DNA of 64,000 nucleotides, taken from the NCBI RefSeq assembly GCF_054482525.1, contig NZ_CM137006.1; one strand, 5' to 3'. The position numbers are program-made. This document shows, one piece after another, positions 9,801 to 12,800 of this stretch (positions within the stretch are counted from its first letter, which is position 1; each line of letters opens with the position of its first letter).

Positions 9801-12800
9801 CGCGCTTTCAGCATCCTGCTGAAAGAAGAAGTGAAAAATATCCAACGTACCGCTGAACTGCTGCTGGAAGTTAACCTTGGCGCAACAGCAATCGGTACTG
9901 GTCTGAACACGCCGAAAGAGTACTCTCCGCTGGCAGTGAAAAAACTGGCTGAAGTCACTGGCTTCCCATGCGTACCGGCTGAAGACCTGATCGAAGCGAC
10001 CTCTGACTGCGGCGCTTATGTAATGGTTCACGGCGCGCTGAAACGCCTGGCTGTGAAGATGTCCAAAATCTGTAACGACCTGCGCTTGCTCTCTTCTGGC
10101 CCACGTGCCGGCCTGAACGAGATCAACCTGCCGGAACTGCAGGCGGGCTCTTCCATCATGCCAGCTAAAGTAAACCCGGTTGTTCCGGAAGTGGTTAACC
10201 AGGTATGCTTCAAAGTCATCGGTAACGACACCACTGTTACCATGGCAGCAGAAGCAGGTCAGCTGCAGTTGAACGTTATGGAGCCGGTCATTGGCCAGGC
10301 CATGTTTGAATCCGTTCACATTCTGACCAACGCTTGCTACAACCTGCTGGAAAAATGCATTAACGGCATCACTGCTAACAAAGAAGTGTGCGAAGGTTAC
10401 GTTTACAACTCTATCGGTATCGTTACTTACCTGAACCCGTTCATCGGTCACCACAACGGTGACATCGTGGGTAAAATCTGTGCCGAAACCGGTAAGAGTG
10501 TACGTGAAGTCGTTCTGGAACGCGGTCTGTTGACTGAAGCGGAACTTGACGATATTTTCTCCGTACAGAATCTGATGCACCCGGCTTACAAAGCAAAACG
10601 CTATACTGATGAAAGCGAACAGTAATCGTACAGGGTAGTACAAATAAAAAAGGCACGTCAGATGACGTGCCTTTTTTCTTGTGAGCAGTAACTTAAAAAT
10701 AACAATCTAATATCAACTTGTTAAAAAACAAGGAAGGCTAATATGCTAGTTGTAGAACTCATCATAGTTTTGCTGGCGATCTTCTTGGGCGCCAGATTGG
10801 GGGGAATAGGTATTGGTTTTGCAGGCGGATTGGGGGTGCTGGTTCTTGCCGCTATTGGCGTTAAACCCGGTAACATCCCGTTCGATGTCATTTCCATTAT
10901 CATGGCGGTTATCGCCGCTATTTCTGCCATGCAGGTTGCTGGCGGTCTGGACTATCTGGTTCATCAGACAGAAAAGCTGCTGCGCCGTAACCCGAAATAC
11001 ATCACGATCCTCGCACCGATCGTGACCTATTTCCTGACAATCTTTGCTGGTACTGGCAACATCTCTCTGGCGACACTGCCAGTTATCGCTGAAGTTGCGA
11101 AGGAACAAGGCGTTAAACCTTGCCGTCCGCTGTCTACTGCAGTGGTATCCGCGCAGATTGCGATCACCGCATCGCCAATCTCAGCGGCAGTGGTTTACAT
11201 GTCTTCCGTAATGGAAGGTCATGGCATCAGCTACCTCCATCTGCTCTCCGTGGTCATCCCGTCCACCCTGCTGGCGGTTCTGGTGATGTCCTTCCTGGTC
11301 ACTATGCTGTTCAACTCCAAACTCTCTGACGATCCGATTTATCGCAAGCGTCTGGAAGAGGGCCTGGTTGAACTGCGCGGTGAAAAGCAGATTGAAATCA
11401 AATCCGGTGCAAAAACGTCCGTCTGGCTGTTCCTGCTGGGCGTAGTTGGCGTTGTTATCTATGCAATCATCAACAGCCCAAGCATGGGTCTGGTTGAAAA
11501 ACCGCTGATGAACACCACCAACGCAATCCTGATCATCATGCTCAGCGTTGCAACTCTGACCACCGTTATCTGTAAAGTCGATACCGACAACATCCTCAAC
11601 TCCAGCACCTTCAAAGCAGGTATGAGCGCCTGTATTTGTATCCTGGGTGTTGCGTGGCTGGGCGATACTTTCGTTTCCAACAACATCGACTGGATCAAAG
11701 ATACCGCTGGTGAAGTGATTCAGGGTCATCCGTGGCTGCTGGCCGTCATCTTCTTCTTTGCTTCTGCTCTGCTGTACTCTCAGGCTGCAACCGCAAAAGC
11801 ACTGATGCCGATGGCTCTGGCACTGAACGTTTCTCCTCTGACCGCTGTTGCTTCTTTCGCTGCGGTGTCTGGTCTGTTCATTCTGCCGACCTACCCGACG
11901 CTGGTTGCTGCGGTACAGATGGATGACACGGGTACTACCCGTATCGGTAAATTCGTCTTCAACCATCCGTTCTTCATCCCGGGTACTCTGGGTGTTGCCC
12001 TGGCCGTTTGCTTCGGCTTCGTGCTGGGTAGCTTCATGCTGTAATGACCAATCGCGGGGCTTCAGGCCCCGCTTTCTTTCCCGCCGACTAACATCCTTCC
12101 CCCGTCCGTTGTATAGTGACCTCTCTCTTGCGGTTCCATCTGTTCTTGCGAGGTGTTTATGCTTGATGAAAAAAGTTCGAATACCGCGTCTGTCGTGGTG
12201 CTATGTACGGCACCGGATGAAGCGACAGCCCAGGATTTAGCCGCCAAAGTGCTGGCGGAAAAACTGGCGGCCTGCGCGACCTTGATCCCCGGCGCTACCT
12301 CTCTCTATTACTGGGAAGGTAAGCTGGAGCAAGAATACGAAGTGCAGATGATTTTAAAAACTACCGTATCTCTCCAGCAGGCACTGCTGGAATGCCTGAA
12401 GTCTCATCATCCATATCAAACCCCGGAACTTCTGGTTTTACCTGTTACACACGGAGACACAGATTACCTCTCATGGCTCAACGCATCTTTACGCTGATCC
12501 TGCTACTTTGCAGCACTTCCGTTTTTGCCGGATTATTCGACGCGCCGGGACGTTCACAATTTGTCCCCGCGGATCAAGCCTTTGCTTTTGATTTTCAGCA
12601 AAACCAACATGACCTTAATCTGACCTGGCAGATCAAAGACGGTTACTACCTCTACCGTAAACAGATCCGCATTACGCCGGAACACGCGAAAATTGCCGAC
12701 GTGCAGCTGCCGCAAGGCGTCTGGCATGAAGATGAGTTTTACGGCAAAAGCGAGATTTACCGCGATCGGCTGACGCTTCCCGTAACCATCAACCAGGCGA

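Follow-up and report, generated by a model that had tools for sequence, protein, structure and literature searches.

Translational coupling at the fixed 25-nt overlap of cutA and dsbD: possible, but not established by the overlap itself

When a bacterial gene begins inside the end of the gene before it, does the overlap in itself mean that translation of the second gene depends on translation of the first? We asked this of cutA and dsbD, which lie next to each other in a window of 64,000 nucleotides (the whole stretch of DNA that was analyzed, from contig NZ_CM137006.1 of RefSeq assembly GCF_054482525.1). An original prediction, made from this DNA alone, held that the two genes share 25 nt in an arrangement of known type, and that this sharing implies translational coupling of two envelope-stress genes. 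The overlap alone does not establish coupling of cutA and dsbD, which we regard as possible, at somewhat less than an even chance.

The genes around the junction run in the order aspA-dcuA-cutA-dsbD-dicD-tRNA-Phe, which is that of the E. coli segment, and all of the features described below are on the + strand. Coding sequences were delimited by ORF scan and profile matches, with which the RefSeq annotation agrees. cutA spans 12159–12497 (112 aa plus TGA), from an ATG at 12159 to the stop TGA at 12495–12497. dsbD spans 12473–14170 (565 aa plus stop), the ATG at 12473–12475 opening a frame of 565 codons that ends at 14170. The frames are distinct (12159 mod 3 = 0 vs. 12473 mod 3 = 2), and the 25 shared nucleotides (12473–12497) code both for the end of CutA, ...(S)WLNASLR and stop, and for the beginning of DsbD, MAQRIFTL(I).

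The identity of both products is clear from profile searches. CutA belongs to the CutA1 family, matching Pfam CutA1 (PF03091) over residues 12–109 at 2.6e-34 and 117.4 bits (cut-off 22.4), and the NCBIfam CutA equivalog NF007930 at 218.1 bits (cut-off 145). DsbD has the three-domain architecture of the protein-disulfide reductase over its full length, with Pfam matches to DsbD_N (1.3e-36), DsbD_TM (8.9e-81), and the C-terminal thioredoxin-like Thioredoxin_2 (2e-14), and its residues 1–564 align with positions 1–573 of 574 of NCBIfam NF001419 at 915.7 bits (cut-off 330). DsbD is an inner-membrane reductase and CutA a PII-like protein of the cytoplasm, about whose role there is debate. The description of the pair as envelope-stress genes is loose, fitting DsbD in a general way.

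The junction is a standard arrangement in E. coli that had already been annotated, and there is nothing new in the overlap itself. In RefSeq K-12 MG1655, cutA (b4137) is placed at 4365018–4365356 and dsbD (b4136) at 4363345–4365042, giving an overlap of 25 nt, and the annotation of PCN033 is identical, with 100% identity over the query. Both references agree with a dsbD start at ATG 12473, as well as with an out-of-frame overlap of 25 nt, so this part of the original prediction held in full. Genes, start and stop positions, overlap length, and junction sequence are the same in K-12 MG1655 as in the window, and CutA of the window differs from K-12 CutA at one residue (99.1% identity). The same junction was found in 5423 of 5426 complete E. 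coli genomes. Elsewhere in the window, a pathogenicity island is present after pheU that is absent from K-12.

Any argument about coupling depends on where dsbD begins, and four agreeing lines of sequence evidence identify ATG 12473 as the true start. This ATG is built from the Ser-Trp codons (TCA TGG) of the conserved C-terminal YLxW motif of CutA, within the last eight cutA codons. Across 66 distinct junction sequences from the Enterobacterales, A, T, and G were each invariant. In cutA, this A is the final base of the codon that precedes Trp (TCA, ACA, or TTA). The site is synonymous, and the mean entropy of third positions in cutA was 1.31 bit over these junctions. Judged from this alignment, conservation of the ATG at a synonymous cutA site is beyond chance. 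The start is directly followed by a predicted signal peptide of 19 codons (12473–12529), of typical appearance, with cleavage predicted before GLFDAPGR; the solved nDsbD chains 1vrs, 1jzd, and 1l6p all begin at this GLFDAPGR, which is Gly20 of the 12473 product. Residue 1 of that product also aligned to position 1 of the NCBIfam DsbD profile. For initiation-site or N-terminal evidence, we looked in the TRAINSPOTTER supplements, from which dsbD and cutA are absent, and in a second translation dataset, which had no entries for them; the mBio ScsB paper contained nothing on the DsbD signal peptide.

If dsbD instead began elsewhere, the overlap would be longer or absent. The upstream candidate is an in-frame ATG at 12392–12394, which would extend DsbD by 27 residues and which opens the longest ORF of the dsbD frame in Escherichia. 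This codon is confined to Escherichia, whereas most genera have a stop that closes the frame 3–4 codons before ATG 12473 (48 of 68 loci). It is also preceded by a weak Shine-Dalgarno (SD) sequence and, of the starts tested, it is the one with the most structured surroundings (opening energy, 18.0 kcal/mol). A downstream start, which the original prediction had named as the finding that would overturn it, is excluded by the signal peptide: inspection of the sequence found no in-frame ATG, GTG, or TTG within it, and the exported N-terminal domain needs the peptide. With the closed frame, the mature end at Gly20, and the curated profile aligned from residue 1, we consider a start at 12392 or downstream to be ruled out for practical purposes.

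To place the junction in a broader context, we surveyed one genome per species, which returned 80 Enterobacterales dsbD loci from genera including Escherichia, Citrobacter, Enterobacter, Klebsiella, Kosakonia, Serratia, Yersinia, Hafnia, Pectobacterium, Pantoea, and Tatumella. An intact cutA was found upstream at 65 of these 80 loci, and the overlap was 25 nt at every one (65/65). The position of the cutA stop is likewise fixed, even though the codon itself is TGA, TAA, or TAG across genera. In the sampled Enterobacterales, the overlap stays at precisely 25 nt because each of its bases serves either the end of CutA or the signal peptide of DsbD. The remaining 15 loci belonged to Erwinia, Rahnella, Rouxiella, and some Pantoea. 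Loci of the Erwinia and Pantoea type carry a start-less remnant of the last ~35 cutA codons as the dsbD leader (for example, ...PPELI...GYQPWLSTSQH and stop), and the rest of the 15 had no recognizable cutA upstream. These cutA-less or eroded lineages retain the same dsbD leader, most with GGAG 13–15 nt upstream. Short ORFs that begin upstream and stop 4 or 8 nt inside dsbD are present in some of them.

More distant taxa were reached through DsbD representatives and look-ups of their contigs, as the matches listed in the CutA homolog search were from the Enterobacteriaceae only. Nine distant DsbD relatives (42–58% identity) were traced to contigs, and four of these had cutA directly upstream. 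The distance between the genes was -4 (ATGA) in L086 and L088 and -1 (a TAATG-type junction) in L087 and L089. These four pairs (44–47% identity) resemble the window in gene order, in the CutA YLxW motif, and in having a signal peptide right after the dsbD ATG. CutA of L086 and L088 also has six residues beyond the conserved Trp, as many as in E. coli. However, their dsbD start lies on the cutA stop, which is the classic geometry for coupling, while the start in the window precedes that position by 21 nt (7 codons). At the place that the ATG of an ATGA junction takes in distant relatives, the window has CTG, codon 8 of dsbD (12494–12496), overlapping the cutA TGA. This pattern suggests that the ancestral junction was of the ATGA or TAATG type, that in the enterobacteria the start probably shifted 7 codons (21 nt) in the 5′ direction without a change of frame, and that the CTG may mark the position of the ancestral dsbD ATG. 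The comparison is a modest but clear illustration of how gene overlaps arise and become fixed.

The spacing of the two genes argues against the usual route to coupling. By the convention of Tian & Salis, the distance is 12473 - 12495 - 3 = -25, outside the range of about -4 to +3 nt in which the literature places efficient coupling of the termination–reinitiation type. In the Tian & Salis reporters, re-initiation was 11.6-fold lower at an overlap of 25 nt, the best re-initiation coefficient was only 0.022 of upstream translation, and overlaps of 25 nt or more were advised as a means of preventing coupling. A recent review (Brown & Wade 2025) reports no coupling at -25 and states that a growing overlap hurts coupling more than a growing gap. 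Still, the Tian & Salis data come from strongly translated synthetic operons, and the authors ascribe the drop to collisions with trailing ribosomes. If cutA is weakly translated, such collisions should be rare, and backward re-initiation at -25 could be allowed. Re-initiation also needs no SD (Tian & Salis).

Two known systems offer a comparison. Like the -4/-1 termination–reinitiation pairs (Huber et al. 2019, 2023; Brown & Wade 2025), cutA and dsbD are co-directional and overlapping, with dsbD beginning within the cutA ORF and lacking a strong SD of its own. They differ in that -25 is outside the efficient range of -4 to +3 and is a distance at which reporter re-initiation is near zero. In the coat and lysis genes of phage MS2, the lysis start also precedes the stop of the gene before it by tens of nucleotides and is in a different frame, and this pair is an example of terminating ribosomes reaching nearby start codons. 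The MS2 arrangement, however, serves phage regulation, has an occluding structure, and yields very little lysis protein, whereas the dsbD start has no structure, and the outputs of cutA and dsbD are near-equimolar.

These outputs can be estimated from published data. By the ribosome-profiling synthesis values of Li et al. 2014, as listed in Dataset EV6 of Mori et al. 2021, CutA is made at 2963205/14315 = 207 copies per generation and DsbD at 10421880/71875 = 145, a DsbD/CutA ratio of 0.70. The proteomic mass fractions in the Mori et al. table give a similar ratio of about 0.66. Near-equal synthesis is what tight coupling would give, but a ratio within 1.4-fold can also arise by chance between neighbors in an operon.

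In its ribosome-binding signals, dsbD stands apart from the genes around it. aspA, dcuA, cutA, and dicD all have an SD at 3–7 nt; for cutA this is GAGG at 12150–12153, 5 nt before the ATG and thus at canonical spacing, with a predicted anti-SD duplex of -7.2 kcal/mol. By contrast, an SD at canonical spacing was found for dsbD at none of the 66 junctions from the sampled Enterobacterales. The only anti-SD complement upstream of dsbD is GGAG(A) at 12453–12457, within Gly-Asp codons of cutA and 15–16 nt from the ATG (-6.6 kcal/mol, 15-nt gap), and Enterobacter junctions are without even this distal GGAG. With GGAGA at 15 nt as its best anti-SD match, dsbD has the weak SD expected of the downstream member of a termination–reinitiation pair. 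The Gly codon in the distal motif is GGA at 56 of 66 junctions (0.61 bit, vs. 1.33 and 1.93 bit at two other cutA Gly codons). This amounts to a preference for GGA at a synonymous site.

Overlapping genes can also be coupled through RNA unfolding, a general mechanism for such pairs in which a hairpin holding the downstream start is opened only by ribosomes translating the upstream gene. That the entire dsbD ribosome-binding region lies within cutA would suit this mechanism. However, the folding energy of the dsbD start region is close to that of shuffled sequence (MFE -21.9 kcal/mol vs. a shuffle mean of -20.0; z = -0.67), and the start is predicted to be ~51% unpaired in the window and 0.52 unpaired on average over 68 loci. 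Its opening energy of 10.5 kcal/mol is below those of dcuA and cutA. Nor was conserved structure detected in a consensus fold of 21 diverse junctions, which contained 2 pairs at -0.29 kcal/mol with no covariation. We therefore rejected an occluding or conserved RNA structure at the dsbD start, in which a stable fold would sequester the start codon, and coupling by unfolding of such a hairpin seems very improbable.

Two readings of the junction then carry most of the weight. We lean, with about even confidence, toward a mechanism in which dsbD is initiated mainly directly and independently, with re-initiation by ribosomes from cutA contributing at most a minor share. Free ribosomes would bind directly to the unstructured, G-poor initiation region of dsbD, for which the distal GGAG, 15–16 nt from the ATG, may serve as a standby site. 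The weakness of this region would keep output low and thus similar to that of CutA, and ribosomes finishing cutA 22 nt downstream would add little by re-initiation. Under this mechanism, the overlap would serve co-transcription and a compact layout, and translational coupling would not be obligatory. We favor mainly independent initiation because the start is unstructured, because re-initiation is poor at -25, and because lineages without cutA keep the same leader. Several observations pull the other way. The near-equal rates of DsbD and CutA (145 vs. 207, and ~0.66 by proteomics) fit tight coupling, dsbD in the sampled Enterobacterales is without the canonical SD that its neighbors have at 3–7 nt, cutA and dsbD are found at the classic coupling distances of -4 and -1 in other lineages, and the reporter data that speak against re-initiation come from strongly translated synthetic operons. 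Even among the lineages without cutA, some have short upstream ORFs ending 4 or 8 nt into dsbD.

The other reading is true translational coupling, in which most DsbD is made by ribosomes that end cutA at the TGA (12495–12497) and slide back 22 nt to the AUG at 12473. This is a tenable reading, although a somewhat doubtful one. Re-initiation would proceed without an SD, and DsbD output would track CutA output. Coupling of this kind would account for the similar synthesis of the two proteins and for the lack of an SD at working distance at any of the 66 junctions, including those of Enterobacter that have no distal GGAG. It is also in keeping with the -4 or -1 junctions of the same pair in distant relatives and with the invariant length of the overlap, and the MS2 coat-lysis work indicates that terminating ribosomes can reach nearby starts. 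Set against this are the 11.6-fold reduction in the reporters and the review's finding of no coupling at this distance, the lack of an occluding structure that would make cutA translation necessary, and the retention of the same dsbD leader where cutA is gone; the similarity in rates, at 1.4-fold or less, could be fortuitous. The original claim that the overlap implies coupling thus survives as a possibility, helped by the rates of 145 and 207 and the missing canonical SD, but the implication itself is not established in view of the -25 spacing, the unstructured start, and the leaders without cutA. A more specific version, that ribosomes which terminate on cutA, itself weakly translated, back up by 22 nt to re-initiate with high efficiency, with the distal GGAG perhaps acting as a capture site, strikes us as rather unlikely. 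If efficient re-initiation at -25 did prove true, this natural junction would run counter to the rule, derived from synthetic operons, that a 25-nt overlap abolishes re-initiation, and it would qualify that rule for operon design.

Signals for transcription bear on a further alternative. A terminator-like hairpin, GCGGGGC-TTC-GCCCCGC, with a T-rich tail follows dcuA (12054–12082, hairpin 12054–12072; 8 pairs, 7 of them G-C), and a promoter-like site, CTAACA-18-TATAGT, lies upstream of cutA (12088–12117; 9/12 matches). Both are pattern matches from a consensus scan; the hairpin would divide dcuA from the cutA unit. A second hairpin flagged as terminator-like, at 12423–12435, has 5 pairs and lies inside cutA, and we treated it as a chance match. 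The third gene of the putative unit is dicD (yjdC; 14207–14782), which has a GTG start with GGAGG 7 nt upstream and an annotation transferred from PCN033 and K-12. Given that cutA and dsbD overlap in the same direction and that the hairpin after dcuA and the promoter-like site both precede cutA, we infer that cutA, dsbD, and dicD are probably read from one mRNA whose promoter is upstream of cutA.

Alternatively, dsbD (with dicD) could have its own promoter inside cutA, in which case the 3′ end of cutA would be an untranslated leader and coupling would be irrelevant. The cutA remnant in lineages that have lost the gene is just such an untranslated leader, and the initiation region presumably works there without a canonical SD. 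On the other hand, scanning the + strand of cutA for the sigma-70 consensus gave no match, which is weak evidence as it covers one promoter type, and that CutA and DsbD are synthesized at similar rates is in keeping with a shared mRNA. We judge an internal promoter to be improbable, and it is compatible with mainly independent initiation of dsbD. The 1995 description of the cutA locus reportedly proposed two operons.

Whichever way dsbD is initiated, the value of the overlap is mostly practical and concerns how cutA mutants are interpreted. The dsbD start and its entire ribosome-binding region are inside cutA, and edits that remove the last 25–45 nt of cutA disturb or remove dsbD expression. 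Because of this placement, copper sensitivity and other phenotypes attributed to cutA can in fact stem from dsbD. This ambiguity has been flagged in the literature, where the reported copper phenotype of CutA is suspected to be confounded by dsbD.

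A GGAGA motif at 12453–12457, within cutA, is separated from the dsbD ATG (12473) by 15–16 nt, a spacing that exceeds the normal Shine-Dalgarno range. The Gly codon of this distal motif is GGA in 56 of the 66 distinct Enterobacterales cutA/dsbD junction sequences, with free variation at other cutA Gly codons, and GGAG is retained 13–15 nt 5′ of dsbD in lineages without cutA. For dsbD, the distal GGAGA might serve as a standby site or as a Shine-Dalgarno sequence with a long spacer.

Among the dsbD loci compared, nine from Erwinia/Pantoea (L048, L050, L051, L054, L057, L064, L065, L074, and L081) carry cutA as a start-less remnant, consisting of the last ~35 cutA codons, ~100 nt upstream of dsbD, which are now its leader. 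Two of these, L057 and L074, contain a 9-codon ORF (MENVVTCHG and MENVVNCHG, respectively) that ends 8 nt inside dsbD, and a 21-codon ORF in L048 and L050 ends in an ATGA-type 4-nt overlap with dsbD. These short upstream ORFs may be candidate replacement coupling partners for dsbD.

Within the window's own overlap, a CTG at 12494–12496 forms dsbD codon 8 and overlaps the cutA TGA (cgCTGAtc). The dsbD ATG of distant relatives (ccgATGAca) falls at the exact position of this CTG, and some Serratia have TTG there. Speculatively, any initiation at 12494–12496 would yield an identical mature DsbD after signal-peptide cleavage. At the other end of cutA, a GTG at 12153 is in frame with the annotated ATG (12159), two codons 5′ of it, and overlaps the gene's GAGG Shine-Dalgarno sequence. 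RefSeq places the cutA start at ATG 12159, not at GTG 12153, and the length of the CutA N-terminus varies among genera, with proteins of 107 to 115 aa.

Many DsbD relatives at 36–48% identity (P0123, P0136, P0138, and many other homologue-search hits) are 720–990 aa long. Their alignment to E. coli DsbD starts only at residue ~150–580, which suggests that these proteins either carry additional domains at the N-terminus or come from gene models that were over-extended.

Further downstream, tRNA-Phe (pheU, 14889–14964) is directly followed by a P4-type tyrosine integrase (15162–16427) and a large island, the whole region spanning 14889–64000. The island carries, all on the minus strand, two chaperone-usher fimbrial ushers (29012–31690 and 39696–42335), a 1014-aa CNF1-type toxin (54049–57093), an HlyB-type exporter (59495–61618), and an RTX haemolysin (61689–63824), and is an ExPEC-type pathogenicity island. 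By contrast, the pheU-adjacent site holds only the yjdQ pseudogene in E. coli K-12 MG1655, and an integrase fragment followed by cadC in E. coli PCN033.
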